A DNA stretch of 64,000 bases, taken from Roseateles sp. (GTDB lineage: Bacteria > Pseudomonadota > Gammaproteobacteria > Burkholderiales > Burkholderiaceae_C). The notes below the pieces were generated by a model, which saw only the letters and a program-made list of their open reading frames with translations, made no database searches and was not told the origin of the DNA. Numbering within the stretch: the stretch's first letter is position 1; each line of letters begins with the position of its first letter. Of this stretch, positions 9,174 through 31,135 are shown piece by piece. The DNA is taken from positions 2,665-66,664 of the forward strand of contig NZ_JBCNLU010000023.1 in NCBI RefSeq assembly GCF_039595295.1, given 5' to 3'. Made by a program: the position numbers and the translations under genes.

Positions 9174-9276
9174 CGCGCCTGCGACGTATCGGCGTGTAGC
9201 AAGGGCGTCGGGCAATCGCACGACCTGCGCGAGGCTCGCGCCAGTCCCGGTCCCGGCGCGACCGAAACGGTCGGAC

Positions 9277-9294
9277 TAACTCTTTCGAGGGATG
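9277..9294 (+). promoter_or_regulatory. 18-bp motif TAACTCTTTCGAGGGATG, identical to 27914-27931 on the minus strand
   Basis: Exact match between two intergenic regions; regulatory role inferred. Confidence 0.6.
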
Positions 9295-9346
9295 CCTCGG
9301 CGCTCCCGCGCCTTGCGCCGGCGAGGTGGCGGCTCCTATGATGGGT

Positions 9347-9371
9347 TTCATGTAGTGTTCCCTACATTGAA
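9347..9371. promoter_or_regulatory. Palindromic operator TTCATGTAG-N6-CTACAT(T)GAA, also present at 24436-24459
   Basis: Inverted repeat ending 6 nt before the ATG at 9378. Confidence 0.6.
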
Positions 9372-9377
9372 GTGCCC

Positions 9378-12300
9378 ATGAACGACCTCGCCCACCTGCC
9401 CTCCATCGAGCTGTCCCCCCACGGACCGCGTCTGCATCGCGTCAGCCCCGCGGCCGGGGCGGCGACGCTGGTGGCCGGCCGCGGCAGCGAGGCGCCGGCC
9501 ACCCTGGCCGTCCTGCAGCGCGAGTACGCCTTCCGCGCCGCCCTGCATCCCGACTGGGCCGCCATCCCCGAATCCATGCAGCCCGCCGGAGAGGGCGCCT
9601 TGCTGTTGCTGCGCGACCCCGGCGGTCGCTTGCTGCGCGAGCTCGTCGGCGCACCGCTGCCCGCCGAAGACTTTCTGCGCCTGGCCCTGGCGATCACGAC
9701 GGCGGTCGAGGGCATGCACGGCGCGGCCGTGATCCACCGCGCGCTCTCGCCCGATCGCATCTTCATCGACGGCCCCGCCGCCCGCGCCACGCTGACCGGT
9801 TTCGGCTTCGCGCTGCGTCTGGGCGCGCCCGGACCGCAGGCGGACGAGACGCTCGCCTGGGACGACAGCTGCTTCGACTACATGGCGCCCGAGCTGGGCG
9901 CCCGCATGAATGTCGATGTCGACGCGCGTGCCGATCTCTATGCGCTGGGCTGCATCTTTCATGAGCTGCTCACCGGCGCGCCGCCTTTCGAGGGCGCCGA
10001 CACCGCGGCGCGCGTCCACGCCCACGCGACTCGACGGCCCGCGCCGCCACACGAGTCCCGCCCCGATCTGCCGGCGCAACTGTCGAGGATCGTCATGCGA
10101 TTGCTGGAGAAGTCCCCCGATCAGCGCTACGCCGATGCCAACGGCCTGCTCGCCGACCTGCGCAGCTGCGACGAGCTGCTGCGCCGCCATGGCGAGATCC
10201 CCGATTTCGCGCTCGACGCCCGCGCCGCGATCGCCGCCGTGCGCGACGACGGACCGCTGGTTGGCCGCGATGACGAACTGGTCCAGCTGCGCCTGCTGCA
10301 TGAGCGCGTGCTGGCCGGCGACGGCGCGCAGACCGGCTGGGTTTGGGGCCCGCCCGGGATCGGCAAGTCCTCGCTGCTGCGCGAGGCCGTCGCCCGCATG
10401 GGCGCCGGGCCGGGCACTGCGGCGCCGCTTGTGGCCACGGGCAAGTGCACCGCCGCGCGCGGCGGCCTTCCCTTTGATTGCCTGTCCCGCGCGCTGGAGC
10501 CGCTGTTGCAGCGCGTGCTGGGAAGCTCGGACATCGAGTTCGACGTCTGGCGCGACCGCCTGCGTGTGGCAACCGAGCCGGTCGGCGCCACTGTCGCCGG
10601 ACTGGTGCCGGGCTTGCGTCAGATCCTGGGCCTGCCCGCCGACGCGCAGGCGCCGGCCATGGCCGACGCGGCGCTGATCTTCGAGCGCGAGATCGTGCTG
10701 CGCGCGATGGCCCGCCTCATCGCCTGCTTCGCGCGTCCGGAGCGCCCGCTGGTGCTGCTGATCGACGACCTGCAATGGGCCGACGTGGACACGCTCCAGG
10801 TCCTGGAGCGGCTGCTCATCGACCGTGCGCAGGCTCCGCTGCTGGTGCTGGGATCGGTGCGCTCGCAGGAATCGCCGGACGTGCAGGACGGGCATCCGCT
10901 GCGCGCGACGCCGCTGTTCCAGCGCCCCGACGCCCTGCATCTGCGCGTGAGCCCGCTGGAAGCCGGCGCCGCGCGCGAACTGGTCGCGCGTGCCCTGCAA
11001 CAAGACGCGGACCAGCTCGGCGAGCTGATCGCGCTGATCGAGTCCTGGACCGGCCGCAACCCCTTCTTCATCCGACGACTGCTGGCGCGTCTGGTCCACG
11101 AGCAGCTTCTGTCCTATGACGCCGAGTCCGCGCGCTGGACCTGGGCGATCGAGCGCATCGCCGCGCACCCCGCGATGCGCGACGTCGGCGAGCTGCTGGC
11201 CGACGAGCTGACCGCGCTGCCCGACGCCACGCGCGCGCTGCTGCACACGCTGGCCTGCCTGGGCGATCACGCCAAGGATTGCCTGCTCGCGTTCTCCGCC
11301 GGCATCGACGAGTCCATGCTGGCCGAGACCCTCGCGCCCGCGGTGGCGGCGGGCTTCGTCGCCGACGAGGGCGATCACTGGGCCTTCATCCACGACCACG
11401 TGCGCGAGGCGGTGCACGTCGCCCTGCCGACGGCGCAGCGCGCGGCGCTGCATCTGGACATCGCCCGGCGTCTGATGACGGTGGGCACCGGCGTCGTGCA
11501 GGCCGACGGCCGCACGGCGGCCAAGGCGGCGATGGCGGAACCGCCGGTGTTCTCGATCGCCGCGCAGGCCAACCTCGCCGCGCCCGCGGTGACGGATGCG
11601 GCGGAGCGGCGCCGCTTCGCGCTGATCAATCTGGAGGCCGGCAAGCGTGCGAAAGCCGCGACCGCGCATCACTCGGCCCTGGAGTTCCTGGGCTGGGCGC
11701 TGCACTGGTTCGGCGACGAGCAGACCAGCGCCGACGCGCTCGAGGCCAGCCTGCTCTGCGGCGAGGCCGAGTTCATGACCGGCGCGCTGGAGGCGGCCGA
11801 GGGCCGGCTGGCCGCGCTGCAGGGCATGGCCGGCGACGGACTCTTCGGCACGGACGTGGCGCGGCTGCGGGTCGCGCTCTACACGACGCTGGGCCGCTTC
11901 GATCTGGCGCTGGACGTGGGCTTCGCCTTCCTGGCGCGCGCGGGCATCGAGCTGCCGCGCCGGCCCACCGATGCGCAGGTCGACGAGGAGCATCAGCGTC
12001 TGCGCGGCTGGCTCGATGAGCGCGGCGTGGCCGGTCTGCGCCACATCGGCGCCGACACCGACCCGCTGCGCCGCGCGATCGTGGACATCTTTGCGGACCT
12101 GCTGCCGCCGGCGATGTACTCGGACCAGAACCTCGAGGACCTGATGCTGATGCGCATGGTCGGCCTGGCCGTCGCCAACGGTCACACCGACGCCTCGGTC
12201 AACGGCTACGTGTGCATGATCCGCGTGCTGGGCGAGCGCTACGGCGACTACGGGCGCTCGCGCGAGTTCGGCGAGCTGGCGCTGCATCTGATCGAGGACC

Positions 12301-14570
12301 GCGGCCTGCGCCGCTATCAGCAGCGCGTGCATCACACCTACGCGACCTTCGTCGTGCCCTGGACCGCGCCGGCCCGCGTCGCGCGTGAGCATCACCTGCG
12401 CGCCTTCGACATCGCGACCCGCGTCGGCGACCACACCTTCGCGCTGTACTGCGGGCGCAATCAGGCGACCGGGATGCTCTTCGCCGGCGACTTCCTGGAA
12501 GACGTGCGCCAGACCGTGGACCGCGCGCTGCAACGCGCGCGTGACGCCAACTTCAAGCTGGTTGTCGATGCCTTGCTGGCGCAGCGCTCGCTGCTGGCCG
12601 CGCTTCAAGACGGCGAACCCGGCCGCGACCACGCGGACCTGCAAGCCGCGCGCCCCGGCGATGCCGAGCGCATGGCCGAGCCGGTCGAGAGCGCGCCCGC
12701 CACGCTGGTCGACTTCGCCTATTGGGTCTATCGGTTGCAGGCGGGACTGCTCTTCGGCGATCTGCCGGAGGCGCTCGAGGCGCGTCGTCGCGCCGAGGCC
12801 TGCCAGCGCGCGGGCCGCTCGTTCGCCGAGTACGCGGACCTGCCGTTCTACGGCGCGCTCGCCTTGCTGCGTCTGCGCGAGCGCGACGACGCGCAGGAGG
12901 CCGCGCTGCGTCGTCATGTGGCGGCGCTGGACACCTGGGCCGCGGACTGCGCGGAGAACTTCGGCGCCCGTCGCGCGCTGGTGCTGGCCGAGCAGGCCCG
13001 CGCGCTCGGGCATGCGACCGAGGCCGCCGAGCTCTACGCCAGTGCCGTCGCGCAAGCGCGTCGCCACGGCTTCGCGCAGGTCGAGGCGCTGGCGGCGGAG
13101 CTCGCCGCCGGCTTCCACGCGGACCAGCATCGCGAGATCGAGAGCCGCGCCTATCTGCGCCATGCGCTGGCCGCCTGGCAGCGCTGGGGCGCGGTCGCGA
13201 AGGCGCGCGACCTGCTGCAGCGTCATCCCGAGCTCAATGACGCTGACCAGCCCGCTGCGCCGACCAGTCGACTGCATCAGCTGGACGTGCAGGCGGTGCT
13301 GCGCATCACGCATGCGCTGGCCAGCGACATCGTGCCCGAGCGCCTGGTCGAGACGACGATGCGCACCGCGCTGGAGTCCGCCGGCGCCGACTACGGCGCG
13401 CTCGCGCTGCTGCGCGACGGGCAATGGATCGTGCGGGCGCGCGCGCGGCTCAACGATGACGAGCTGGTCGTGACGCAGGAGCCGGCGCCGTTCTCGCCCG
13501 AGGTGCTACCGGTCTCGATCGCGCATGCGGTGGCGCGCACGCAGCATGCGGTGCAGCACGACGACGCGCGTGACGCGCCGGCTCTGGCGCAGGACGACTA
13601 CGTGATGCGCGCCAAGCCGCGCTCGCTGCTATGCGTGCCGATGATGCGCTACGCGCGTCTGATCGGCGTGCTCTACCTGGAGAACTCGCTGGCGCCGCGC
13701 GTCTTCACCACGGCCAAGGCCGAGCTGCTGGAGGTGATCGCGTCGCAGGCGGCCTTCTCGCTGGAGAACACGCGGCTCTATGAGGAGCTCGTCGATCAGA
13801 ACCGCCAGCGCGCCGAGGCCGAGGAGCGTCTGCGCAACGCGCTGCAGGAGCTCGCGCGTGCCAGCCGGTTGAAGGCGATGGGCGAGCTGGTCGCTTCCAT
13901 CGTTCACGAGATCGGTCAACCACTCAGCGCCATCGACACCTCGGCCAGCGCGGCCGGTCGCTGGCTGCGCCGGCCCGAGCCCGACATCGGCGAGGCGCTC
14001 ACCATGATTTCCCATGTGAGTCTGAGCGCCAAGCGCGCGAAAAGCATCATCCAGGGACTGCGCGCGATGGCACGCAAAGCCGAGCCGCAGTTTGCCGAGG
14101 TTGATCTGGGCGACGCGCTGCGCGAGTGCGCGACCCTGGTCGGCGGCTCGCTGGCGGAGCTCGGCGTCACGCTGTCGGTGACGGGACCCACGATGCCTTG
14201 CCCGGTGCGCGGCGACCGGGTGCAGCTGCAGCAGGTCGCGATCAATCTGCTGATGAACGGCGCCGAGGCCATGTCCGATCTGCCGACCGATCTGCGCCGT
14301 CTGTCCCTGCAGTGGGCGGTGACGCGTCCGGATCTGGTCGAGGTCGTCGTCGAGGACCGCGGCGTGGGCATCGCCGCCGACGCGGTCCGTCAGGTGCTGG
14401 AGCCCTTCTTCACGACCAAGTCGCACGGGATGGGCATGGGTCTGGCGATCTGCAAATCCATCGTCGATGCGCACGGCGGCGCGTTGAGTTTCGATCCGGG
14501 CGCCATTGGCGGCACGCGGGTCACGCTGAGCCTGCCCAGCTTTGGCGCCAGTCCTCAGCAGGAAGGATGA
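9378..14570 (+). CDS. Multidomain sensor: Ser/Thr kinase-like + AAA ATPase + helical repeats + GAF + histidine kinase
   Basis: IHRALSP..TGFG..YMAPE (degenerate kinase); Walker A GPPGIGKS; Walker B LLIDDLQWAD; GAF PRSLLCVPM..GVLYLEN; H-box SIVHEIGQPL; N/G1/F/G2 boxes NLLMNG, EDRGVGI, PFFTTK, GMGMGL. Confidence 0.9.
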   Translation: MNDLAHLPSIELSPHGPRLHRVSPAAGAATLVAGRGSEAPATLAVLQREYAFRAALHPDWAAIPESMQPAGEGALLLLRDPGGRLLRELVGAPLPAEDFLRLALAITTAVEGMHGAAVIHRALSPDRIFIDGPAARATLTGFGFALRLGAPGPQADETLAWDDSCFDYMAPELGARMNVDVDARADLYALGCIFHELLTGAPPFEGADTAARVHAHATRRPAPPHESRPDLPAQLSRIVMRLLEKSPDQRYADANGLLADLRSCDELLRRHGEIPDFALDARAAIAAVRDDGPLVGRDDELVQLRLLHERVLAGDGAQTGWVWGPPGIGKSSLLREAVARMGAGPGTAAPLVATGKCTAARGGLPFDCLSRALEPLLQRVLGSSDIEFDVWRDRLRVATEPVGATVAGLVPGLRQILGLPADAQAPAMADAALIFEREIVLRAMARLIACFARPERPLVLLIDDLQWADVDTLQVLERLLIDRAQAPLLVLGSVRSQESPDVQDGHPLRATPLFQRPDALHLRVSPLEAGAARELVARALQQDADQLGELIALIESWTGRNPFFIRRLLARLVHEQLLSYDAESARWTWAIERIAAHPAMRDVGELLADELTALPDATRALLHTLACLGDHAKDCLLAFSAGIDESMLAETLAPAVAAGFVADEGDHWAFIHDHVREAVHVALPTAQRAALHLDIARRLMTVGTGVVQADGRTAAKAAMAEPPVFSIAAQANLAAPAVTDAAERRRFALINLEAGKRAKAATAHHSALEFLGWALHWFGDEQTSADALEASLLCGEAEFMTGALEAAEGRLAALQGMAGDGLFGTDVARLRVALYTTLGRFDLALDVGFAFLARAGIELPRRPTDAQVDEEHQRLRGWLDERGVAGLRHIGADTDPLRRAIVDIFADLLPPAMYSDQNLEDLMLMRMVGLAVANGHTDASVNGYVCMIRVLGERYGDYGRSREFGELALHLIEDRGLRRYQQRVHHTYATFVVPWTAPARVAREHHLRAFDIATRVGDHTFALYCGRNQATGMLFAGDFLEDVRQTVDRALQRARDANFKLVVDALLAQRSLLAALQDGEPGRDHADLQAARPGDAERMAEPVESAPATLVDFAYWVYRLQAGLLFGDLPEALEARRRAEACQRAGRSFAEYADLPFYGALALLRLRERDDAQEAALRRHVAALDTWAADCAENFGARRALVLAEQARALGHATEAAELYASAVAQARRHGFAQVEALAAELAAGFHADQHREIESRAYLRHALAAWQRWGAVAKARDLLQRHPELNDADQPAAPTSRLHQLDVQAVLRITHALASDIVPERLVETTMRTALESAGADYGALALLRDGQWIVRARARLNDDELVVTQEPAPFSPEVLPVSIAHAVARTQHAVQHDDARDAPALAQDDYVMRAKPRSLLCVPMMRYARLIGVLYLENSLAPRVFTTAKAELLEVIASQAAFSLENTRLYEELVDQNRQRAEAEERLRNALQELARASRLKAMGELVASIVHEIGQPLSAIDTSASAAGRWLRRPEPDIGEALTMISHVSLSAKRAKSIIQGLRAMARKAEPQFAEVDLGDALRECATLVGGSLAELGVTLSVTGPTMPCPVRGDRVQLQQVAINLLMNGAEAMSDLPTDLRRLSLQWAVTRPDLVEVVVEDRGVGIAADAVRQVLEPFFTTKSHGMGMGLAICKSIVDAHGGALSFDPGAIGGTRVTLSLPSFGASPQQEG

Positions 14571-14811
14571 GGAGATCGCGCCTTGCGGACGGCGACGGGG
14601 CATACGGCGGTCATCTCGGTGGAAACCCTCGTATGAGAGGAGCCGCCGCTTGGTTGGATTGGTCGAGGAAAGGGGCTCTGGTCATATCGACGACATCGCG
14701 GACACGAGCTCGGATGGCCCGGACACCGCGATCCGCCGACCCGTCGGCAGCCGGTCGCGACCGAGTGCGCGACGCGCGCCGCCGGGCATCCCCTGACCCA
14801 AGGAGTTGACG

Positions 14812-15480
14812 ATGAACCACCATGAAATTCCCCTGTTCCCGCCGCGGCGCTTCCAGCCGCAGCGCCTGCTGCTCGCCGCGACGCTGGGCTGCGCGTTGAT
14901 GGCCGGCCTGATGTCGGTCGCGCTGGCCGAGCCGGCCGCCTCGGCCACGACGGGCCCCGTGACCCGCGACCAGGTCGTCGCCGATCTGAAGGCCTATCAG
15001 GACTCGGGCCTGGCCGCGCTGGAGTCGGACGAGTCGCAATCGAAGATCGGCACGGCCGAGTGGCGCGCGGCGCGTCTGCGCTATCTCGAGTTGCGCGGCA
15101 TCCCGGCCGACGGCGCGGTCAAGCCGGCGCTGTCGCGCCAGCAGGTGCTGACCGATCTGAAGTTCTACCGCGAGTCCGGTCTGGCCGACGTCGAGCGCCG
15201 TGATGGGGAGGAGTCCAATCAGTCCGCCGCCCTCGTCGCCGCGCAGGAGCGCTACGACCAGCTCACGATGATGGACATGATGGACCGCCCGCTGACGCGC
15301 GCCGAAGTCGTCGCCGATCTGCAGATTTATCGCGAGTCCGGCCTGGCCGCCTATGACCGCAGCGAGGGCGACGTGCAACGCAGCAGCGCCGGTTATCAGC
15401 AGGCGCTGGCCCGCTACAAGCAGCTCAAGCGCGACGGTCATTACCAGCATCTGGTGATGGCGCTCGGCAAGTCGAGCTGA
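14812..15480 (+). CDS. Exported DUF4148-like protein with three internal repeats
   Basis: AGGAG RBS; signal peptide; TRDQVVADLKAYQDSG / SRQQVLTDLKFYRESG / TRAEVVADLQIYRESG. Confidence 0.7.
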   Translation: MNHHEIPLFPPRRFQPQRLLLAATLGCALMAGLMSVALAEPAASATTGPVTRDQVVADLKAYQDSGLAALESDESQSKIGTAEWRAARLRYLELRGIPADGAVKPALSRQQVLTDLKFYRESGLADVERRDGEESNQSAALVAAQERYDQLTMMDMMDRPLTRAEVVADLQIYRESGLAAYDRSEGDVQRSSAGYQQALARYKQLKRDGHYQHLVMALGKSS

Positions 15481-15559
15481 ACGACGCCTTGTCGATATCG
15501 CCATGCCTGCCGCACGACCAAGCACTCGAACAACATCGGTCGCCCGACATGCCCGGCGT

Positions 15560-15601
15560 TTCCCCTCTCCCGCCAGCGAGAGAGGGGGAGGAGTGAGGGC
15601 C
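15560..15601. repeat. Degenerate copy of the REP-like element
   Basis: TTTCCCCTCTCCCGCCAGCGAGAGAGGGGGAGGAGTGAGGG resembles 57587-57629. Confidence 0.5.
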
Positions 15602-15672
15602 GGCGCCCCACTCCGACCTCCGTTCCTGCATTCTTTTCCCCCTCGACCCATCCGCAACCCGTGGAGCCCGCG

Positions 15673-16854
15673 ATGACGCTCTCCCTCCTCGCTCTCGGCG
15701 CCGTCGCGCTGACCCTCGCCCTGATCGCCGGTGCCGCGTTGGTCGACTGGCCGCGGCGCTCGTTCGCGCTGATCCTGCTGGCGATGTCCAGCGTCGGCGT
15801 GACCAGCCAGGCCGCCTCTCCGCCCGTGGAAGGCATGGCCCCCGCCTTCACCGGCGCCACCGGCTGGCTCAACTCCCCGCCCATCGACCTGAGCGCGCAG
15901 CGCGGCAAGGTCGTCGTGGTGAGCTTTTGGACCTACTCCTGCATCAACTGCCTGCGCGTGCTGCCCTACGTGCGCGCCTGGTCGCAGCGCTATGCGAAGC
16001 AAGGCTTGGTCGTCGTCGGCGTGCACTCGCCCGAGTTCGGCTTCGAGAAGGACCCCGCCAACGTCACCCGCGCGGTCAAGGACCTCAAGCTGACCTACCC
16101 GATCGCGCTGGACGACGGCTTCAAGGTCTGGCGTGCCTACGGCAACCGCTTCTGGCCGGCGCTCTACATCGTCGATGCCCAGGGGCGAATCCGCCATCAC
16201 CAGTTCGGCGAGGACGGGTCGCCCGAGACCGAGCAGATCATCCAGACCCTGCTGCGCGAGACCATGCCGCCCGCACCCACGACCTCGACCACCGTGGCGG
16301 CCAAGCCCGCCGCCGCGGCGGCGACGGCCACGCCGACCTCCCCATCGACGCCCGCGCCGATGGACACCGATCTCAGCGGCGTCGGCATGCCGGCGGACCT
16401 GGATCATCTGCGCTCGCCCGAGAGCTACATCGGCTACGCCCAGGCGACCAGCATGGCCGGAGCGAGCGCGCTGTCCCGCGACCGCTCGCGGCGCTACGTC
16501 GCGAGTCAGCTGGACCTCAATGAATGGACGCTCTCCGGCGCATGGACCGTCGGCGCCGAGTACGCCACCGCCGACGAGGCGAACGCATCCCTCGCCGTGC
16601 GTTTCCACGCGCGCGACGTGAACCTGGTGATGGGCCCGCCGAGCGACGGCGGTCCGGTGAAGATCCTCGTGACCATCGACGGCCAGCCGCCCGGCGAGGA
16701 CCACGGCGTCGACATCGACGCGCAAGGCAACGGCATGGTGGACGCCACGCGGCTCTACCAGCTGGTGCGCCAGCGCGCGGTGCAACGCGACCGGCGCGTG
16801 GAGATCCGCTTCCTCGGCACCGGCGCGCGGACCTACGCCTTCACCTTCGGTTAA
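15673..16854 (+). CDS. DipZ-like exported thioredoxin/redoxin protein
   Basis: WLNSPP..L..RGKVVVVSFWTYSCINC; VGVHSPEF; NRFWPA.Y; SPESYIGY; RTYAFTFG C-terminus. Confidence 0.85.
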   Translation: MTLSLLALGAVALTLALIAGAALVDWPRRSFALILLAMSSVGVTSQAASPPVEGMAPAFTGATGWLNSPPIDLSAQRGKVVVVSFWTYSCINCLRVLPYVRAWSQRYAKQGLVVVGVHSPEFGFEKDPANVTRAVKDLKLTYPIALDDGFKVWRAYGNRFWPALYIVDAQGRIRHHQFGEDGSPETEQIIQTLLRETMPPAPTTSTTVAAKPAAAAATATPTSPSTPAPMDTDLSGVGMPADLDHLRSPESYIGYAQATSMAGASALSRDRSRRYVASQLDLNEWTLSGAWTVGAEYATADEANASLAVRFHARDVNLVMGPPSDGGPVKILVTIDGQPPGEDHGVDIDAQGNGMVDATRLYQLVRQRAVQRDRRVEIRFLGTGARTYAFTFG

Positions 16855-16937
16855 CGAGCTCATCTCTTCGTATAGGGCGGCCGCCGCGGGGCCGCCCGCA
16901 GTGCTACCGTGCGCGCCAGCGCGATCAGGTGACCGTC

Positions 16938-17624: not shown

Positions 17625-17664
17625 GCCCCGGAGCCCGCGCGTGTCGATCAGCCCCTCCGCCGTG

Positions 17665-19788: not shown

Positions 19789-19801
19789 CCGGCCTCCGGG
19801 T

Positions 19802-22681: not shown

Positions 22682-23519
22682 GGTTCACCTCCATCTCGAT
22701 GCCGCAGTGCGCGGCGGCGCGCTCGATGGCGACGCGCACCAGATGGCGGCGCAGCGCGGCGCTGCCGCGGTGGTCGTCGATGGGCGAGAGCTCCGGCATC
22801 GGCGTGTCGCGGATGAGGTGCGTCAGGTCGACGGGGCGGGCGCCCTCGAGTCTCGCCTCGAGACCGCGCAGCCGCACCGGGACGTCCGAGGCGCCGCCAA
22901 TGGCGATCGCGGCGCGCGCGGCGACGCCGTTCTCGTTCCATCGCAGGCAGAGCGCCGCCGAGACCGTGGCCAATGCCGTCCCGTCGCGATTGGCGAGCTT
23001 GATGAAGGCGCCGCGCTCATGCGGAGCGGGCGTCGGGATGAGCACGGCGCTCAGCAACTCATCCGGCCTCAGCGCGGTGTGGCGCCGCCCGAGCAGGAAC
23101 TGATCGAGCCGCAATCGCCGGACACCGGCCAGGCTGGCGAGCTCGACCTGCGCCTCCAGCGCGAGCAGCGGCGGCACGCCGTCGGCGATCGGCGAGGCGT
23201 GGCAGAGGTTGCCTCCCAGCGTTCCCTGCACCCGGATCTGCCGGGAGCCGACCTGGCCCGCCGCCTCGCGCAGCACGCCCGGCGTGAGCGGCGATTGCTC
23301 GATCGCTTCCCAGGTCGCGGCGGCGCCGATGCGCAGATGGCCGTCCGTCAGCGCGATGGGCTTCAGCGACGCGACCCGGCCGATGTCCAGCCACGTCGAC
23401 CCGGCGACCGGGCGGGACGGATCGGCATAGACGTCGGTGCCGCCGCAGAGCACGCGCCGCGGATGGCGCGCGAGCTCGGCCAGCGCCTCGTCGAGGGTGT
23501 GGACGCGAAGATGGTTCAT
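22665..23519 (-). CDS. FAD-binding subunit of the Mo hydroxylase (CoxM-like)
   Basis: LCGGTD, LRIGAAAT, VGSRQIRVQGTLGGNLCHASPIAD. Confidence 0.9.
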   Translation of the reverse strand: MNHLRVHTLDEALAELARHPRRVLCGGTDVYADPSRPVAGSTWLDIGRVASLKPIALTDGHLRIGAAATWEAIEQSPLTPGVLREAAGQVGSRQIRVQGTLGGNLCHASPIADGVPPLLALEAQVELASLAGVRRLRLDQFLLGRRHTALRPDELLSAVLIPTPAPHERGAFIKLANRDGTALATVSAALCLRWNENGVAARAAIAIGGASDVPVRLRGLEARLEGARPVDLTHLIRDTPMPELSPIDDHRGSAALRRHLVRVAIERAAAHCGIEMEVNHVASK

Positions 23520-23654
23520 CGGGGCAAGCGGCCGGTCCCAGGCGCGGGGCGCTGGGGGGAAGAGTCGTTCTGCCGGGCCGTGCGGGCGATCCTACAAGTC
23601 GAGGATGGCGCACGGTGCGCCCCGCGACGCCGATGCCGCTTGAGACCAGGATCG

Positions 23655-23674
23655 GCTACCTCTTCGGAGGTAGC
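23655..23674. other. Perfect 8-bp hairpin GCTACCTC-TTCG-GAGGTAGC
   Basis: Read directly; lies between tetR and the FAD-subunit gene; no U-tract. Confidence 0.55.
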
Positions 23675-23693
23675 GCGGCGCTCCCCGGCAAAC

Positions 23694-24356
23694 TCAATCC
23701 GCTCGCACCACGCGCTGCAGGCTGTCGATGACGAAGCCTTCCCACTGCTCCGCGGCGACGCCGTTGTCGATGGAATCGCCCAGGAAGGCGGACATCGTGT
23801 AGCGGTTGGAGGTGAAGAAGTAGGACGCCGACACGATCAGCAGATAGACGTCGCGCGCGTTCAGCGCCGGTCGGAACAGTCCCCGCTCCGCGCCCGTCGT
23901 CAGGATGCGGTCGATCAGCCGCACCGCGTGCGAGGAGTACTCCGTCGCCTTGTCCGACTTCTGCACGTGCTTGCCCTTGAGCAGGTTCTCCGTGTTGAGC
24001 AGGTTCACGAACTCGGGATGCCGCCGGTAGTAGTCGATCTTAAAGCGGATCACCGTGTTCAAGGCCTCCACCGGATCGTCCGGGTCGGCGACGCACTTGG
24101 CCTCGGCCTCGTCCATGCGCTGGTAGATGCCTTCCAGCACCGCGATGAACAGCCCCTCCTTGCTGCCGAAGTAGTAATAGATCATCCGGTCGTGCGTCTT
24201 CGCGGAGCTCGAGATCTTCTCGATGCTGCCGCCGTCGTAGCCGTACCGGGCGAAGACCTTGGTCGCCGCCTTGAGGATGCTGTCGCGGGTCGCCTGGGCG
24301 GCGGCCTCGCGCATGCCGGTGCCGCGCACCGCCTTGGTCTGCTTGGTCTGGGCCAT
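23694..24356 (-). CDS. TetR-family regulator (RutR-like)
   Basis: TRDSILKAATKVFARYGYDG...MIYYYFGSKEGLF; LLNTENL. Confidence 0.9.
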   Translation of the reverse strand: MAQTKQTKAVRGTGMREAAAQATRDSILKAATKVFARYGYDGGSIEKISSSAKTHDRMIYYYFGSKEGLFIAVLEGIYQRMDEAEAKCVADPDDPVEALNTVIRFKIDYYRRHPEFVNLLNTENLLKGKHVQKSDKATEYSSHAVRLIDRILTTGAERGLFRPALNARDVYLLIVSASYFFTSNRYTMSAFLGDSIDNGVAAEQWEGFVIDSLQRVVRAD

Positions 24357-24435
24357 GAATGTTCCGGTGCCCGGAGCGCCGCCATCCTGGGCGGCGTCTC
24401 CGTCCCGACGCGGGATCGCCGCGCCGGATGTTGAT

Positions 24436-24459
24436 TTCATGTAGCAGGCACTACATGAA
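24436..24459. promoter_or_regulatory. Perfect palindrome TTCATGTAG-N6-CTACATGAA, candidate TetR operator
   Basis: 9-bp arms, about 80 bp upstream of the tetR start. Confidence 0.7.
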
Positions 24460-24733
24460 TGTGGCGATGATACGCAGCGTCATGACTTCCGGCAATCGGG
24501 GGATCGCGCGGGGCGCGCCCCGCCGTGCGAGCCGCGTCCGCGCGCGAGCAGCGCGCGGGATCTCGATCGCGGATCGATACCAAGGTATGAGCGCCGCAGG
24601 CCGCTCGTTCAATTCTCCGCGGCAAGTGCCGCTGCTCTGATGGCGGACATCGCGGGGCGCCGCTCGCGCGTCCCCGGATCAACCCGCCGAACGGCCCTGC
24701 GCCGACTCGGCAACCCGCCAATCAGAGGCCCAC

Positions 24734-25564
24734 ATGTCCAAACGCATTCTTCGCACGCTCACCCTGTCGGCGCTGGCCGCCTTCGCCGTCGCTCTGCCGG
24801 TCCTGGCCAAGGACGCCGCGTCCGCTTCGGCCGCTCCGACCGCCGCGTCGGCGACGACCAAGCCCACCATCGTGCTCGTTCACGGCGCCTTCGCCGACGC
24901 CTCCAGCTGGAACGGCGTCGCCGGCGAGCTGCGCGGCAAGGGCTATCCCGTCGTCGCCGTCGCCAATCCGCTGCGCAGCGTCTCGGGCGACGCCCGCTAT
25001 ACCGCGTCCATTCTGGACAAGATCCCCGGCCCGGTCGTGCTGGTCGGCCACTCCTACGGCGGCTCGGTGATCAGCAACGCGGCGGTCGGCCAGACGCGCG
25101 TGAAGGCGCTGGTCTTCGTGTCGGCCTTCGCGCCGGAAACCGGTGAATCCGTGGTCCAGCTCGCGGGCAAGTTCCCCGGCAGCACGCTGGGCGACGCGCT
25201 GGCCGCGCCGGTGCCGCTGCCCGAAGGCGGCGTGGACCTGTACATCGACCAGGACAAGTTCCGCAACCAGTTCGCCGCCGACGTGAAGCCGGACGCCGCG
25301 CGCCTGATGGCCGTGGGCCAGCGCCCGGTGGCCGAGGCCGCGCTGAAGGAAGCCAGCCAGGGCACGGCCTGGAAGACCCTGCCGAGCTATTACGTCTACG
25401 GCAGCGCCGACAAGAACATTCCGCCCGCCGCGATGGCCTGGATGGCCGAGCGCGCCCATGCGCGCAAGACACTCGTGATTCGCAACGCCTCGCATGTGGT
25501 GATGGTCAGCCATCCGCATGAAGTCGCCGCGCTGATCGAGACCGCCGCGCACGACGCCGAGTAA
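24734..25564 (+). CDS. Exported alpha/beta hydrolase
   Basis: Sec signal; VLVHGAFAD; GHSYGG nucleophile; ASHVVMVSHP His. Confidence 0.88.
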   Translation: MSKRILRTLTLSALAAFAVALPVLAKDAASASAAPTAASATTKPTIVLVHGAFADASSWNGVAGELRGKGYPVVAVANPLRSVSGDARYTASILDKIPGPVVLVGHSYGGSVISNAAVGQTRVKALVFVSAFAPETGESVVQLAGKFPGSTLGDALAAPVPLPEGGVDLYIDQDKFRNQFAADVKPDAARLMAVGQRPVAEAALKEASQGTAWKTLPSYYVYGSADKNIPPAAMAWMAERAHARKTLVIRNASHVVMVSHPHEVAALIETAAHDAE

Positions 25565-25652
25565 GCCCCCGCGCCCGCGGCGTCCGCCCCTTGCCTGGCC
25601 GCCGCGGGCCGTGCTTTCCCGCCACTCCCCCTGTCCCCCCAAGGAGATCCTC

Positions 25653-26678
25653 ATGACGAATGAATCTTCCCGCCGCGACTTCCTGTCGCTCGCCGCCGTC
25701 GGTGGCGCCGGTCTGGCGCTGTCCGGCATCACCGGTCTGACCGGTGGCGCGCTCGCCGCGACGGCCGCCACCGGCCGCGAAGCTTTCGGTCCGGTGCGCC
25801 AGATCAAGGCCGGCCTGCTCGACGTCGGCTACGTGGACCTCGGCCCGCGTGACGGCACGCCGGTGATGCTCTTCCACGGCTGGCCCTACGACATCCACAC
25901 CTACGAAGAAGTCGCGCCGCTGCTGGCCGCGCAAGGCTTCCGCGTGATCGTGCCGCACCTGCGCGGCTACGGCTCGACGCGCTTCCTGTCCGATGCGACG
26001 CTGCGTTCGGGCCAGCAGACCGCGCTGGCCGCCGACACCATCGCGCTGATGGACGCGCTGGGCATCCGCCGCGCGATCATGGCCGGCTGCGACTGGGGCG
26101 CGCGCAATGCCTGCGTGGTCTCGGCGCTGTGGCCCGAGCGCTGCCAGGCGCTGGTCTCCGTCAGCGGCTTCCTGGTGCTGAACCGCGCCACCGCGCTGAC
26201 GCCGCTGTCGCCGGCCGACGAGTTCTCGTGGTGGTACCAGTACTACTTCGCGACCGAGCGGGGCCGCATCGGCTACGAGAAGAATCTCAAGGAGTTCGCG
26301 CGCTTCATCTGGCGCCAGGCCTCGCCGAAGTGGAACTTCGACGACGCCACCTTCGATCGCGCGGCGGCCAGCCTGGTCAATCCGGATCAGGTCGCGGTGG
26401 CTGTACACAACTACCGCTGGCGCATCGCCGCGGCCGAGGGCGACCCGCAGTACGAGGCGCTCGAGACGCGTCTGGCGCAGGTGCAGTCGGTGTCGCTGCC
26501 GTCCATCACGATGGAAGGCGACGCCAACGGCGCGCCTCACCCGGCGCCCGCGGCCTATGCCTCGCGCTTCAAGGGCAAGTACGAGCACCGCAACCTGAGC
26601 GGCGGCATCGGCCACAACCTGCCCCAAGAGGCGCCGGCGGACTTCGCCAAGGCCATCATCGACCTGAGCAAGTGGTAA
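25653..26678 (+). CDS. Tat-exported alpha/beta hydrolase, epoxide hydrolase/haloalkane dehalogenase type
   Basis: SRRDFL twin-arginine signal; HGWP; GCDWG Asp nucleophile; GIGHNLPQE; AAGGAG RBS. Confidence 0.85.
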   Translation: MTNESSRRDFLSLAAVGGAGLALSGITGLTGGALAATAATGREAFGPVRQIKAGLLDVGYVDLGPRDGTPVMLFHGWPYDIHTYEEVAPLLAAQGFRVIVPHLRGYGSTRFLSDATLRSGQQTALAADTIALMDALGIRRAIMAGCDWGARNACVVSALWPERCQALVSVSGFLVLNRATALTPLSPADEFSWWYQYYFATERGRIGYEKNLKEFARFIWRQASPKWNFDDATFDRAAASLVNPDQVAVAVHNYRWRIAAAEGDPQYEALETRLAQVQSVSLPSITMEGDANGAPHPAPAAYASRFKGKYEHRNLSGGIGHNLPQEAPADFAKAIIDLSKW

Positions 26679-26707
26679 GCCACTCCCGACAAGAAAGAGA
26701 CATCCCC

Positions 26708-27130
26708 ATGACCCGCATCATCGAGAAACCCCTGTACACCGCCACCACGCTGACCACCGGCGGTCGCGAAGGCGCCGGTGTCTCCAGCGACGGCGCGCTG
26801 GACGTCAAGCTCAGCACGCCGGGCGGCGGCGGCAAGGGCACGAATCCGGAGCAGCTCTTCGCGGTCGGCTATTCGGCTTGCTTCATGGGCGCGATGCGCC
26901 GCGTGAAGACCGCCGACAACGTGCGCGTGCCCGACAACGCCTCCATCGAGGCCGAGGTCACGCTGGGCACCACCGCCGACGGCGGCTTCGCGCTGGCGGC
27001 CAAGCTGCATGTCAACCTGCCGGGCCTGACCGAGACGCAGAAGTGGGCCCTCGTCGACGGCGCGCATCAGCTGTGCCCGTACTCGCACGCCACGCGCGGC
27101 AACATCGAGGTCTCGTTCAGCGTCGCCTGA
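26708..27130 (+). CDS. ohr: Organic hydroperoxide resistance protein
   Basis: GGREG, TNPEQLFAVGYSACF, AHQLCPYS.ATRGN. Confidence 0.93.
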   Translation: MTRIIEKPLYTATTLTTGGREGAGVSSDGALDVKLSTPGGGGKGTNPEQLFAVGYSACFMGAMRRVKTADNVRVPDNASIEAEVTLGTTADGGFALAAKLHVNLPGLTETQKWALVDGAHQLCPYSHATRGNIEVSFSVA

Positions 27131-27171
27131 ACTCGGCGTGGCGAGCGCGGATCGCCGGCTCGGGCGCAGGC

Positions 27172-27813
27172 TCAGAGCTCGATGATCCCGCGCTTGAGCG
27201 CGATGGTGACCGCATGCGTGCGGTCCTTGGCCGAGAGCTTGCCCAGGATGGTCCGGATGTGGACCTTGACCGTCTCCTCGGTCAGCGAGAGGCTCTCGGC
27301 CACTTCACGATTCGCCTGACCCAGCGCGACCAGCCGCAGCACCTGGGTCTCGCGCAGCGACAGCGTGCGGCTGTGCGCGTGCTGGGCGATGGCGGCCTCG
27401 ATCTCCGCCGGCACCATCAGCCGACCCGCGTGCACGCCGCGGATGGTGTCCACCAGGTCGGTGCGCAGCAGGCCCTTGAGCAGATAGCCGGAGGCGCCCG
27501 CCTTCATCGCCCGCATGGCCTGGAAGTCGCCGGGGAAAGTGGTGAGGATGACGATGCGCGCCTCGGGGAACTCGCGACGGATCGCGGCCATCGCCTCGAT
27601 GCCGTCCATGTCTCGCATGCGCAGGTCCATCAGCGTGACATCGGGCAGGTGCTGGCGGAAGCGGGTGAGCGCATCCAGCCCGTTGCCCGCCTCGGCCACC
27701 AGGCGCATGTCCGGCTCGGCGTCCACGACGGTGGCGATGCCACTGCGCATCAGCGCATGGTCGTCGACGGCCATCACAGTGATGGGCCGGGGGCTCGGGG
27801 TGGTGTCGGTCAC
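27172..27813 (-). CDS. NarL/LuxR-family response regulator
   Basis: MAVDDHALMR, PDVTLMDLRM, ILTTF, GYLLK, LSLRETQVL...NREVA; start either 27813 (GTG) or 27858. Confidence 0.92.
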   Translation of the reverse strand: MTDTTPSPRPITVMAVDDHALMRSGIATVVDAEPDMRLVAEAGNGLDALTRFRQHLPDVTLMDLRMRDMDGIEAMAAIRREFPEARIVILTTFPGDFQAMRAMKAGASGYLLKGLLRTDLVDTIRGVHAGRLMVPAEIEAAIAQHAHSRTLSLRETQVLRLVALGQANREVAESLSLTEETVKVHIRTILGKLSAKDRTHAVTIALKRGIIEL

Positions 27814-27913
27814 AGGGGCGGCAAGAAGGACGCGATCGGCCGGATCGCGAAAGCCCAAGCGTAGCCGCTGTGCCGGCCGCCGGCTGACGTACCGTTGCCC
27901 CCGGTTGCGAAGT

Positions 27914-27931
27914 CATCCCTCGAAAGAGTTA
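27914..27931 (-). promoter_or_regulatory. Second copy of the 18-bp motif TAACTCTTTCGAGGGATG
   Basis: CATCCCTCGAAAGAGTTA on the + strand is the exact reverse complement of 9277-9294. Confidence 0.6.
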
Positions 27932-27991
27932 TTCCGCGACCTGGCCGGACCAAAGTTCTGATAGCGTCCGCGCGACCTCCCGCTCGAGTCG

Positions 27992-30900
27992 ATGACGTCC
28001 GATCCCCACCGTTCGCCGCTGCGCCAAGGCTTCTGCCAGCGCTTCTTGCAGCGTCTCCTGCAACGCTGTGCCCTGCGGTCGCTGCGGCGCCTTGCCGCGA
28101 CCGTGGTCGTCCTGTGGGCGTCCGTGGCGGGCCTCCCGGCGGCCTGGGCGCTGGATGCGGATCTGCGGCTGAGCCAGTTCCAGCATCGCGCCTGGACGGC
28201 CGCGGACGGCGCGCCGACCGAGACCTGGGCGATGACGCAGTCCACCGACGGCCTGATCTGGATGGGCGGACCCGGCGGGTTGCTGCGCTTCGACGGTCTG
28301 CGCTTCGAGCGCTTCCCGACTTCGAGGGCGACGCCGTTCCCGGCCGGCGCGGTGTTGCGGGTGATGGCCGCGTCCAACGGCGATCTGTGGGTGAGCTTCT
28401 TCCCCCGCGGGCTGGTGCGGATCCGGCAGGGCGAGGTCTGGCAGGTGCCGGAGTCCGAGCCGGTCGCCGCGCAGCGGGTGCGCTACCTGTCCGAGGATGC
28501 CGACGGGCGGATCTGGGTCGGCGGCGAATCCGCCTTCTTCCGCTTCGACGGCGAGCACTGGACGCGGGGCGACGAGATCCCGGGCTTCGGCGGCATGCCG
28601 CTGGGCGGGCTGGTGATCGACGGCCGCGGCACGGTGTGGGTGTGCGCGCGGGACCGGCTGGTGCAGGCGCTGCCGCGCGGCGCGACCAGTTTCAAGAGCG
28701 TGGGCGATTGCACCGACGCGCGCAGCATGCCGGTGACGGACGGCCGGGTCTGGATCGTCGACGCGAAGTCGGCGCGGCGCATGCCCGAGGTCTCCCAAGC
28801 CCCGCTGCTGCCCCGGCTGACCTGGGGCGCGAGACGCTCGTCGCCGACCTGGCTCGATCGCGAGAGCAACCTGTGGTCGCTGTACTGCCCCGCCGGGCTC
28901 TGTCGGCGAAAGCTGCCGATCTCCACCTCCGACGCCATCGACCTCCCCGAACCCCCCGAACGCATGGGCGTCGCCGAGGGCCTGAGCGGCGACTTCGGCA
29001 TGACGATGATGGAGGACGTCGAGGGCAATCTGTGGGTCGCGACCAAGACCGGTTTGGACCGGTTCCGGCGCGCGGCGCTGGTCCCGGCGGAGCTGCCGCG
29101 CGGGACCAGCAACTACGCGCTCGCGGCGGAGCCCGACGGCAGCGTGTGGACGGCGGCATCCGCGACGGGGACCTATTCGAAATGGCGCTTGAGCGGCGTC
29201 GGCGATGCGGCGTCCCTCCCGGCACCGAATGCGCAGGTCACCGCGGTCGGACGCGACGCGCAGGGGCGTCTGCTGATGGGCGGATCGAGCGGCCTGTGGC
29301 GCAGGGAGGGGGAGCGCTGGGTCGAGCTGCCACGGCCCGTCGGCGCGCAAGGCCGATGGGTGCTGGGCATCGCGGCGCAGGGCGGGAGCATGCTGGCCTC
29401 GTTCCAGAAGCTGGGCGTGCAGCGCTTCGACGACGGGGTCTGGCAGCCGCTGGCGGTGCCCGGCGAGCCGGGTCCGGTCGAGGCGGCCTTGGCGGTCGCG
29501 CCGGATGACGCGGTCTGGCTGGGGCTCAAGAACAACCGCGTGCTGCGCTTGAAGGACGGTGCGGTGCGCCGCTTCGGACCGGAGGAGGGCGTCGATGTCG
29601 GCGATCCCTTCCTGGTTTATGCAGGGCGCACGCGCGTGCTGGTGGCCGGCGGGCTGGGTGTGGACGTGTTGCACGGGGATCGTTTCGTGCCGCTGATGTC
29701 CGAGTCCACGGATGCGCTGATGGGCGTGTCGGGCATCGTGGAGACGGCCAACGGCGACCTCTGGCTCAACGGCCGCAAGGGCGCCGTGCAAGTGACCAAG
29801 GCCGATCTGGACGCCTTCCTCGCGGATCCTGGAAAGCCTTTGCGGCATGCGCTGATCGATGCGCTCGACGGCTATCCGGTCAGCGCGACCTCGTTCTGGC
29901 CGCAGCCCAGCGTCGTGGAGGCCGCGGATGGGCGGCTCTGGTTCGCGGGCATCACGGGCGTCGCCTGGCTGGATCCGCGCCGTCTGACGCGCAACCCGGT
30001 GGCGCCGGTCGCGCGCGTGACCGGCGTGCGCGCCGACGGCGTCGAGTACCCGCCCGGCGCGCCGCTGCGGCTGCCGATCAAGACCTCGATGCTGGAGCTG
30101 CGCTTCTCGGCGGCCAGCCTGTCCATTCCGGAGCGGGTGCGCTTCCGGTTCAAGCTGGAGGGCCAGGATCGCGGCTGGCGCGACAGGACTTCGCGGCGCG
30201 AGACCCTGTACACCAACCTCGCGCCGGGGCGCTACGTCTTCCACCTGCAGGCCTTCAACAACGACGGTGTGCCGACGGCGGGCGAGACCCTCCAGGTCAT
30301 CGAGATCCCCGCGGCCTTCTATCAGACGCTGTGGTTCCGCGCCGCCTGCGTGCTGGCGGCCATCGCGCTGATCTGGGCGCTGCACCGGTTGCGCATGCGG
30401 CAGGCGGCACGCGCCGCGCGCGAGAAGCTGCGCACCCGGCTGGCCGAGCGCGAGCGCATCGCGCGCGAGCTGCACGACACGCTGCTGCAGGGCGTGCAGG
30501 GACTGATCCTGCGCTTCGAGGCGAACGCGACGCGGCTGCCGATCGATCACCCCGCCCGCGCGGCCATGGAGCAAGACCTGGCCCTCGCGGATGAGGTGCT
30601 GGACGAAAGCCGCCGGCGGGTGATGGCGCTGCGCTCGACGCCGGCCGCGGCGGGAAGCCTGGCGCGAGCGCTGGAGGACGTGATCGCGCAACTGGCGCGG
30701 GACTACGACGGCGAATGCCGCGTGGAGATCGAGGGCCGTGAGCGTCCCTTGAAGCCTGAGGTCCGCGAGGAGCTGCGATTGATCTTCGGCGAGGCGTTGC
30801 TGAACGCCTTCCGGCATGCCGACGCGACGCGGATGACGCTGTGCCTGCGCTACGGCTGGCGGGGGCTGCGGGTCACGCTGAGCGACGATGGGCGGGGCAT

Positions 30901-31135
30901 TGCGCCGAAGCTGCTGGCGGACGGTCGGCCGGGTCACCTGGGGCTGGTCGCGATGCGCGAGCGCGCGAGGGCGATCGGGGCGCGTTTGTCCGTGGCCAGT
31001 CGCGTGGGGAAGGGGACCACCGTGGAGCTGCGGCTGCGCGCGTCGAAGGCGTATGCCGCCGGGCCGATCGAATCGGCCCATACAGCCGATTCAGCCGATG
31101 CGGTCGGTCCGGTGAAGGACAATCCCGCCCCATGA
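27992..31135 (+). CDS. Sensor histidine kinase: periplasmic beta-propeller + Y_Y_Y + HisKA_3 + HATPase
   Basis: Repeated D.DG.LW motifs; [14 protein letters not shown]...[10 protein letters not shown]; TM helix; [15 protein letters not shown]; DDGRG, GHLGL. Confidence 0.9.

Follow-up and report, generated by a model that had tools for sequence, protein, structure and literature searches.

A putative two-input circuit at the operon of a giant sensor kinase in Roseateles sp. and its likeness to described regulatory systems

Introduction

Roseateles sp., a bacterium of the Burkholderiales, carries a giant sensor kinase of 1730 amino acids whose operon is predicted to be controlled by two regulators of different kinds, a TetR-family regulator and a NarL-type response regulator. 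The kinase gene lies in a stretch of 64,000 nucleotides (nt) (NCBI RefSeq assembly GCF_039595295.1, contig NZ_JBCNLU010000023.1, positions 2,665 to 66,664 of the forward strand), which is called the window hereafter and to which all coordinates refer unless a related locus, designated by L and a number, is named. The guanine plus cytosine (GC) content of the window is about 70%, and codon-position GC was used to separate real genes from spurious high-GC open reading frames before the genes were annotated with Pfam and NCBIfam. All the components belong to standard families, and the locus is a new instance of known regulatory logic, tied to an uncharacterised kinase family and involving no new molecular mechanism.

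TetR-family operators classically sit just past the -10 box of the repressor's own promoter, an arrangement known as textbook autoregulation. The window regulator is like the autoregulated repressors of the TetR/QacR type in its TetR_N helix-turn-helix and ligand-domain fold, in a perfect palindrome just past its own -10 box, in a second copy of this site at a second promoter and in heading a catabolic/transport operon; it differs in that its second putative target is a sensor-kinase operon and not a catabolic gene. Its nearest named relative by sequence is RutR, although the relationship is partial (53 bits to the PDB RutR; 71 bits with TIGR03613 against a cut-off of 368) and the palindrome of the window presumably differs from the operator sequence of RutR.

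HisKA_3 kinases pair with NarL-type regulators, and the heptamer consensus of E. coli NarL is TACYYMT. As in E. coli NarX/NarL, a REC-GerE regulator of the window stands beside a HisKA_3 kinase, keeps the recognition helix TVKVH and is associated with a 16-bp site of 7-2-7 geometry like the engineered E. coli NarL site TACCCCTAAAGGGGTA (PMC4549865), but the window kinase has a periplasmic beta-propeller/Y_Y_Y sensor in place of the NarX nitrate sensor, and only two putative targets are known.

A second REC-GerE regulator of the window probably belongs to the FixJ subfamily, like those of TodS/TodT and StyS/StyR, for which the TodT/StyR box ATAAAC-N4-GTTTAT has been described (PMC5874301). The window resembles these systems in its putative FixJ-subfamily regulator, in a kinase H-box of the form HE(I/L)xQP and in a candidate box of the form xAWAC-N4-GTWTx near -41 (PMC5874301). 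The differences are that the giant kinase is not a double-sensor kinase, having kinase-like, AAA_16 and GAF domains instead, that the half-site is CATAC/AAAC...GTATG and not ATAAAC, and that the putative targets are redox and envelope genes and not aromatic-catabolic operons. The H-box of the giant kinase reads HEIGQP, which we take to be typical of kinases of the FixL/DctB/TodS class.

The giant kinase has the domain order Pkinase-like, AAA_16, GAF, HisKA and HATPase_c. The same order (S_TKc-like, AAA_16, GAF, HisKA, HATPase) is found in the group X hybrid kinases of fungi, namely Chk1p of Candida albicans and Mak2/Mak3 of Schizosaccharomyces pombe, and Mak2/Mak3 have been described as peroxide sensors (PMC9069115). 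A link to peroxide is a further likeness, as genes for Ohr and a thiol-disulfide protein accompany the window module, with a catalase gene in addition in L081, but the window kinase lacks the fused C-terminal receiver (it has no REC domain in its 1730 residues) and a separate single-REC gene is present. Orthologues 55-57% identical in Variovorax, Paraburkholderia and Burkholderia bear the NCBI name [quoted passage not shown]. The window protein shares the domain order and the length of about 1700 residues with this family, but its Ser/Thr-kinase-like domain (9378-10200) has HRA for HRD and GFG for DFG and is devoid of the catalytic Asp, the VAIK Lys and the Gly loop. Because these catalytic signatures are missing, the domain is a pseudokinase, and the name "trifunctional" over-states its likely activity. 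In the literature searched, no bacterial system with this kinase architecture has been given a function or a regulon, and TetR control of such a kinase was not found either.

The giant-kinase promoter and its two shared motifs

Two motifs of the giant-kinase promoter recur at one other promoter each, that of tetR (motif A) or that of narL (motif B). The elements and genes concerned are as follows; promoter boxes (-35, -10 and extended -10) were assigned from sequence and are putative.

9098-9377, about 280 bp, intergenic region containing the giant-kinase promoter (P_giantHK), with motifs A and B both in the last 100 bp
9277-9292, + strand, motif B site 1, 3' end 44 nt upstream of the P_giantHK -10 box, centre about -64
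9313-9318 and 9337-9342, + strand, P_giantHK core promoter, -35 TTGCGC, 18-nt spacer, -10 TATGAT
9347-9367, motif A site 1, putative TetR operator at P_giantHK, TTC-ATGTAG-TGTTCC-CTACAT, starting 7 nt past the -10 box, about +1 to +18
9378-14570, + strand, giant sensor kinase, 1730 residues, start ATG 9378, with kinase-like, AAA_16, GAF, HisKA and HATPase_c domains
23694-24356, - strand, TetR-family regulator, TetR_N + TetR_C_29, start ATG 24356
24436-24495, - strand, tetR promoter (P_tetR), -35 TTGCCG (24490-24495), 17-nt spacer, -10 TATCAT (24467-24472)
24436-24459, motif A site 2, perfect 24-bp palindrome TTCATGTAG-N6-CTACATGAA, 7 nt past the P_tetR -10 box
27172-27813, - strand, NarL-type response regulator, REC + GerE, start GTG 27813
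27916-27931, - strand, motif B site 2 at the narL promoter (P_narL), 52 nt upstream of the -10 box TACGCT (27858-27863)
27959-27967, + strand, propeller-kinase promoter, extended -10 TGATAGCGT
27992-31135, + strand, propeller kinase, a histidine kinase with periplasmic Reg_prop/Y_Y_Y and HisKA_3

Motif A is a perfect palindrome, ATGTAG-N6-CTACAT (full form ATGTAGNNNNNNCTACAT), with exactly two sites in the 64 kb even at two mismatches (9350-9367 and 24439-24456), against a chance expectation of 0.14; none of 100 shuffles gave two or more sites. Motif B is a 16-18-mer, TAACTCTTTCGAGGGA(TG), whose 18-nt form TAACTCTTTCGAGGGATG also has exactly two sites even at three mismatches (9277-9294 on the + strand and 27914-27931 on the - strand), against an expectation of 0.00, and the match stretches to 26 nt at 92%. 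A preliminary description of this DNA had noticed two motifs of the giant-kinase promoter recurring near narL and tetR, and these searches bear it out, as Pfam and NCBIfam do its gene inventory. Its measures need correction: the promoter region put at about 140 bp is twice as long, tetR starts at 24356 and not at 24440, and 24436 and 27914 are positions of the motifs and not of gene starts. Since tetR and narL start downstream of the motifs, these are promoter or 5' untranslated elements and do not overlap start codons.

Related loci were gathered by a genome scan with the symporter of the neighbouring catabolic operon, followed by look-ups of giant-kinase homologues, and the closest one is that of Mitsuaria chitosanitabida (symporter 88% and giant kinase 91% identical at the protein level, with synteny). 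Both motifs are kept in related Roseateles, Mitsuaria and Pelomonas genomes and in metagenome contigs while their flanks drift, so the conservation in orthologous promoters on which the preliminary description had made its proposal depend is found. A screen of public RNA sequencing runs recovered the window sequence only in DNA or metagenome runs and in one metatranscriptome holding 5% of the words, with no usable transcription-start data.

Motif A and the TetR-family regulator

When orthologous promoters were aligned on the palindrome (P_giantHK in nine genomes, P_tetR in eight), the identity of the motif A arms was 100% at P_giantHK and 99% at P_tetR, while that of the flanking DNA was 57-61%. 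P_giantHK in the nine genomes has CTTGCG/A, 17-18 nt, TATGAT/TATCAT, 4-5 nt and TTCATGTAG(T/C)(G/A)TTCCCTACAT, and P_tetR in most of the eight has TTGCCG, 17 nt, TATSAT, 7 nt and TTCATGTAG-N6-CTACATGAA, the exceptions being a different -35 box in L005 and L081 and one arm mismatch in L081. P_tetR of the window is the only strict sigma-70 consensus match across 9000-28500 (19.5 kb), and at both promoters motif A always lies 7-10 nt past a TATSAT -10 box. The loop of the palindrome is invariant at P_giantHK and variable at P_tetR. Furthermore, motif A is found at P_giantHK in all nine loci where the giant-kinase operon abuts the SSF-Mo-FAD-tetR genes and in none of the four where it does not.

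The TetR-family regulator exceeds the cut-offs of both of its domains (PF00440, 50.7 bits; PF17938, TetR_C_29, 121.9 bits), its best PDB match is the TetR-family protein 3npi (1.2e-25), and its gene is the first of the operon tetR-FAD-Mo-DUF3311-SSF, with tetR abutting the FAD gene in L005 also. TTCATGTAG half-sites are also found in the promoter region of the Burkholderia orthologue (67% identical). In L083 (Burkholderia cepacia) a distance of 6 kb separates the giant kinase from the orthologous tetR-FAD-Mo cluster, and the half-sites occur at both ends of an intergenic region (3989-4322), on the tetR side and on the side of a divergent small GAF-HisKA-HATPase kinase, with none at the giant kinase; no k-mer of 9 nt or more is common to the tetR and giant-kinase upstream regions of this locus. 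The TetR-to-giant-kinase link consequently does not extend to Burkholderia, where the half-sites place a TetR-to-sensor-kinase link at a different kinase. The putative operator follows TetR across the genera, and its second target differs. Taken together, the form, placement and co-occurrence of motif A make it highly probable that it is the operator bound by TetR at both P_tetR and P_giantHK.

As a separate observation, the tetR leader of the window (24357-24438) has about 60 nt between the putative operator and the start codon that are not present in L003, L004 and L006.

Motif B and the NarL-type system

Motif B reads TAACTCT-TT-CGAGGGA, that is, an inverted pair of heptamers in the 7-2-7 arrangement. 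Set against the consensus for E. coli NarL, the heptamers agree in 6 of 7 and 5 of 7 letters, a resemblance only. The regulator with the TVKVH helix has PF00072 and PF00196 and its divergent neighbour kinase PF07730 (HisKA_3), but it reaches 148.8 bits with the NarL equivalog NF007935, of which the cut-off is 250, and is not an orthologue of E. coli NarL. The distance from motif B to the -10 box is 43-44 nt at P_giantHK and 40-42 nt at the orthologous narL promoters, the 52 nt at P_narL of the window being one helical turn more. With its centre at about -61 to -72 and the same orientation relative to the downstream gene at P_narL and P_giantHK, motif B has the placement of a class-I activator site. 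The distance to the propeller-kinase promoter varies freely among genomes, which suggests that the copy between the two divergent genes serves narL.

Site 1 is kept in L001, L002, L004, L006 and L087 as well as in the metagenome loci L094, L099, L112 and L114, and an exact motif B is present at P_narL in the window, L002, L003, L004, L006 and L088. The last of these is a metagenome-assembled genome labelled Rubrivivax in which narL and the propeller kinase lie in another neighbourhood, with no giant-kinase island within 10 kb and with motif B at equal spacing; L005 is without the narL-propeller-kinase pair beside ohr and also without motif B. An exact-match scan of metagenomes gave 26 matches: seven in contigs with a GC content of 70% or more, each of them at P_narL or P_giantHK, and the others in unrelated low-GC DNA. 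The distant propeller-kinase homologues in L089 and L090 (37-41% identical, paralogues) have no motif B-like site and are uninformative either way. From the site geometry, the recognition helix and the distribution of the motif, NarL is probably the protein that binds motif B, although this assignment is less secure than that of TetR to motif A.

Motif B at P_giantHK is confined to one clade, in which the giant kinase is at least about 70% identical, and orthologues of the propeller kinase (at least 58% identical; next best 41%) are also confined to this clade. The latter indicates that the NarL input is a lineage-specific addition. In comparative terms, the motif B link is lineage-specific rewiring and not a property of the giant-kinase module.

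Motif C and the FixJ-type regulator

A third motif was derived from the conserved intergenic blocks between the giant kinase and the DUF4148 gene and between tetR and hyd1. Motif C is AWACS-N3-GTAKG, i.e. the palindrome CATAC-N4-GTATG, and the promoters have the layout motif, 19 nt, a -10-like TCAATT/TGGATT/TTTGAT, 13-21 nt and CTCTGRT. The distance to the -10-like hexamer places its centre near -41. The sites and the genes of this tier are:

14623-14635, + strand, motif C site 1, AAACCCTCGTATG, then 19 nt, TGGATT (14655-14660), 16 nt and CTCTGGT; element 14623-14682, putative DUF4148-DipZ promoter
14812-15480, + strand, DUF4148 exported protein with three DUF4148 repeats (Pfam)
15661-16854, + strand, membrane-anchored Redoxin + Thioredoxin_10 protein resembling the C-terminal part of DipZ
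16938-17624, + strand, putative FixJ-subfamily response regulator, REC + GerE
17641-18111, + strand, single-domain receiver (REC), its 3' end overlapping the convergent symporter gene
24577-24589, + strand, motif C site 2, ATACCAAGGTATG, then 19 nt, TCAATT (24609-24614), 21 nt and CTCTGAT; element 24577-24641, putative hyd1-hyd2-ohr promoter
24734-25564, + strand, hyd1, alpha/beta hydrolase
25611-26678, + strand, hyd2, alpha/beta hydrolase with a twin-arginine translocation (TAT) signal
26708-27130, + strand, ohr

The two exact matches in the window are both upstream of operons. There are 26 exact matches in 12 of the 14 giant-kinase sequences (the window and 13 loci), and those checked against gene coordinates are intergenic, while 1.06 Mb of high-GC control loci gave one match. 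The loci L081-L084 and L087, which were not used to define the motif, carry it ahead of DUF4148, hyd1, catalase, OmpR-type regulator, single-REC and small-kinase genes. Thus, in L081 it precedes DUF4148, hyd1 and a catalase gene (site 6729-6741, about 105 nt upstream of the gene), which would extend the putative regulon to peroxide detoxification; in L082 (Variovorax) it lies in the divergent region between the giant kinase and the OmpR-type regulator and ahead of the small kinase; and in L083 and L084 (Burkholderia and Paraburkholderia) it lies ahead of the small kinase and, by a position weight matrix scan, of the single-REC gene, with a further site ahead of a BON-domain gene in L083. Written as (C/G)AWAC-N4-GTATG, motif C shares the N4 geometry of the TodT/StyR box and has a related half-site. 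A composite pattern GCTCTGRT...ATCGCGG was barely over chance. Readings of these promoters as sigma-54 or extracytoplasmic function (GAACTT-N16-TCTGA) promoters were ruled out by eye, as the spacings do not fit.

The best NCBIfam model of the FixJ-type regulator is FixJ (NF006900, 174.8 bits), under its cut-off of 255. The adjacency of giant kinase and REC-GerE regulator is kept in Variovorax, Burkholderia, Paraburkholderia and Cupriavidus, that of the single-REC gene in the first three but not in Cupriavidus, and the FixJ-type regulator is the likely partner of the giant kinase. As the conserved core module encodes no other DNA-binding protein, and in view of the HEIGQP H-box of the kinase, motif C is assigned to this regulator, an assignment with even chances of being right and the weakest of the three. 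The motif gives cis-element support for a putative output tier of DUF4148-DipZ and hydrolases-Ohr, and it suggests positive feedback on fixJ-REC.

Separately from the motif, the DUF4148 5' leader (14660-14815) is strongly conserved in eight genomes, and base pairing is possible between its CUCUGGUC box and the Shine-Dalgarno region GACC..AAGGAG; a corresponding pair in the hyd1 leader is CTCTGAT/ATCAGAG. These pairings may reflect anti-Shine-Dalgarno translational control, though with almost no covariation and with no Rfam match either to the whole window at the gathering threshold or to 9000-32000 at E up to 1.

The proposed circuit

The three motifs can be combined into a conserved circuit made of three ordinary kinds of regulator-binding site, and this two-input reading is the best-supported explanation, with a probability of roughly 0.6. 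The pairing of proteins with motifs, the direction of regulation, the transcription starts, the phosphotransfer partners and the signals are inferred from the DNA, whereas the occurrence of the motifs beyond chance at their positions, their conservation and co-variation and the domain content of the proteins are observed directly. In the absence of ligand, TetR would shut two operons, tetR-FAD-Mo-DUF3311-SSF and that of the giant kinase, and ligand would release TetR and open both of them. NarL, once phosphorylated by the periplasmic propeller kinase, would activate the giant-kinase operon from the class-I position and regulate its own promoter through motif B. Two inputs would thereby meet at P_giantHK, a cytoplasmic metabolite that relieves repression and an envelope or periplasmic signal that activates. 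The giant kinase would then signal both to the FixJ-type regulator encoded beside it and to the single-domain receiver, and the former would act through motif C on DUF4148-DipZ(-fixJ-REC), closing a positive feedback, and on hyd1-hyd2-ohr. What the giant kinase senses is a guess: Ohr, the thiol-disulfide protein and catalase are among the motif C targets, and this makes a redox or peroxide signal a reasonable one.

The preliminary description had proposed a two-input cascade coupling the catabolism of a probably heterocyclic substrate to peroxide and envelope defence. The wiring has gained cis-element and comparative support for the TetR site, the NarL site and the output-tier motif C, but the substrate and the defence purpose have not, the coupling of catabolism to defence being read from gene names. 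The heterocyclic substrate is a guess, as the molybdenum (Mo) enzyme reaches none of the NCBIfam equivalog cut-offs and the symporter can be called no more than MctP-like.

Several points weigh against the two-input reading. Both copies of motif A would be transcribed and could form a 5' RNA hairpin. The co-variation of motif B with narL depends mainly on two loci, L005 and L088; an unlinked factor could bind motif B, and its recognition by either of the GerE-type regulators is conceivable in principle. The -35 box of P_giantHK (TTGCGC with an 18-nt spacer) is a fair one, so activation by NarL may be modest and the effect of motif B may even be negative. Motif C was defined post hoc, has no site in L085 and L086, and has weak -10 assignments at its promoters (TCAATT and TGGATT); a relaxed search of the window (CATAC-N4-GTATG with two mismatches) found 5 sites where 5.6 were expected, and because this is the chance level, the case for motif C is built on the exact pattern, its recurrence across genomes and the control loci.

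If the wiring holds, it is a natural example of a sensor-kinase operon gated by a small-molecule repressor and by another two-component system, it offers an entry point to a large sensor-kinase family annotated across the Burkholderiales, and it makes regulatory rewiring visible, with a NarL box at the kinase promoter only where the block adjoins narL and a motif C-like box in the outgroups. A broader claim is tentative and somewhat doubtful, namely that this would be the first defined circuit for the widespread bacterial pseudokinase/AAA/GAF/histidine-kinase family, in which TetR (responding to a Mo-pathway metabolite) and NarL gate a third-tier redox sensor that drives an Ohr/thiol-disulfide/hydrolase/catalase regulon via a TodT-like box, the NarL input being a recent acquisition of the lineage in which the block of about 18 kb adjoins narL.

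Alternative explanations

Among the other explanations, the one that survives best supposes that an unlinked regulator co-controls narL and the giant kinase through motif B and that NarL itself is not the binder. The co-variation does tie motif B to the narL promoter and not to the NarL protein. However, the exact motif occurs in high-GC metagenome contigs only at the two promoters, unlike the sites of a global regulator, and the 7-2-7 geometry goes together with a NarL-like recognition helix. Response-regulator genes are, in addition, very commonly autoregulated, and an unlinked regulator is judged rather unlikely.

It is improbable that the hierarchy is reversed, in such a way that the FixJ-type regulator binds motif B and the giant kinase autoregulates its own operon and switches on narL. 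Both regulators do have GerE-type helix-turn-helix domains, and the operon encoding the FixJ-type regulator has motif B in its promoter. Orthologues of this regulator are, however, 69-81% identical in L005, L081, L082 and L083, and a REC-GerE gene follows the kinase in L084-L086, yet none of these seven loci has motif B, while L088 and L093 have it exactly at narL with no giant-kinase island nearby. Across the genera it is motif C, not motif B, that tracks the giant-kinase module, and motif B fits the heptamers and the recognition helix of NarL.

An action of motif A as RNA, a 6-bp stem-loop at the start of both mRNAs that stabilises the transcript or binds an RNA-binding factor, would agree with the position of both copies at about +1 to +18 and with the conserved arms and varying loop at P_tetR. 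It has little likelihood, as no stem position shows a compensatory change among 17 sites, the TTC...GAA flanks extend the palindrome as DNA, the Burkholderia sites keep one half-site and lose complementarity, and the loop does not vary at P_giantHK; position and form are instead those of a TetR-family autoregulatory operator, at the promoter of the operon's only TetR gene.

That the shared motifs are remnants of duplicated promoter DNA or chance likenesses with no regulatory role is hardly credible, since, although the TATSAT -10 box beside motif A is likewise common to P_tetR and P_giantHK, which could be promoter segments of common descent, the motifs are 99-100% kept against 57-61% for the flanks in genomes whose giant kinases are only 57-72% identical, the chance expectation is at most 0.14 for motif A and 0.00 for motif B, and the motifs keep fixed positions with respect to the -10 boxes.

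Related loci and evolution

The symporter scan found six related species with the common layout NarL, Hyd2, Hyd1, TetR, FAD subunit, Mo subunit, SSF, REC, FixJ, (DipZ), DUF4148 and giant kinase, and the giant-kinase look-ups added three loci with the layout of the window, L081 (62% identical), L086 (60%) and L087 (72%). The loci of Variovorax, Burkholderia, Paraburkholderia and Cupriavidus share no more than the core module (giant kinase plus REC-GerE regulator), which is followed in the first three by the single-REC gene and then by a small histidine kinase. The same AsmA-GlnE-rhomboid-EamA flank precedes the giant-kinase block in L087 and the narL-propeller-kinase pair in L088 (positions 1-10000 of each), and, compared with L088, a block of about 18 kb reaching from the giant kinase to ohr adjoins narL in the clade with motif B at P_giantHK. 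Because of this common flank, the block behaves as an insertion or deletion beside narL.

In L005 a motif C-like box, CAAACCTTGGTAGG (18883-18895), takes the place that motif B would have upstream of the kinase promoter, in L081 another, CAACCAAGGTATGG (about 9860), lies further upstream of the giant-kinase promoter, and in Variovorax the divergent region ahead of the giant kinase contains an exact motif C. These boxes suggest an ancestral, self-activated giant-kinase promoter that was later rewired to NarL.

Effector and catabolic genes

The remaining genes of the region are a RidA-like gene before the giant kinase and the catabolic/transport genes of the tetR operon:

8645-9097, + strand, RidA-like gene
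18020-19528, - strand, SSF symporter, MctP-like
19525 to about 19790, - strand, DUF3311, small partner of the symporter
19802-22681, - strand, Mo hydroxylase, fused 2Fe-2S/molybdenum-cofactor subunit
22665-23519, - strand, Mo hydroxylase, flavin adenine dinucleotide (FAD) subunit

The Mo hydroxylase consists of 2Fe-2S, molybdenum-cofactor-binding and FAD modules of the xanthine-dehydrogenase family (PF01799, PF00111, PF02738, PF20256, PF00941 and PF03450), and its best equivalog score is that with selenium-dependent xanthine dehydrogenase (560.8 against a cut-off of 830). Ohr is identified by TIGR03561 (162.1 bits, cut-off 88.85). The three internal repeats of the DUF4148 protein (14957-15371) correspond to DNA repeats of 82 nt, 61-71% identical and 162-171 nt apart. 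In the Paraburkholderia locus L084 two pairs of DUF4148 and alpha/beta hydrolase genes (867-2910 and 7952-9150) lie upstream of the giant-kinase module, so effectors of these types accompany the module outside Roseateles as well. Finally, the convergent single-REC (+) and symporter (-) genes have about 90 nt in common (18020-18111) with no terminator between them, and the overlap is kept in L001 and L081; with such an arrangement the two putatively TetR-controlled operons would transcribe into each other.

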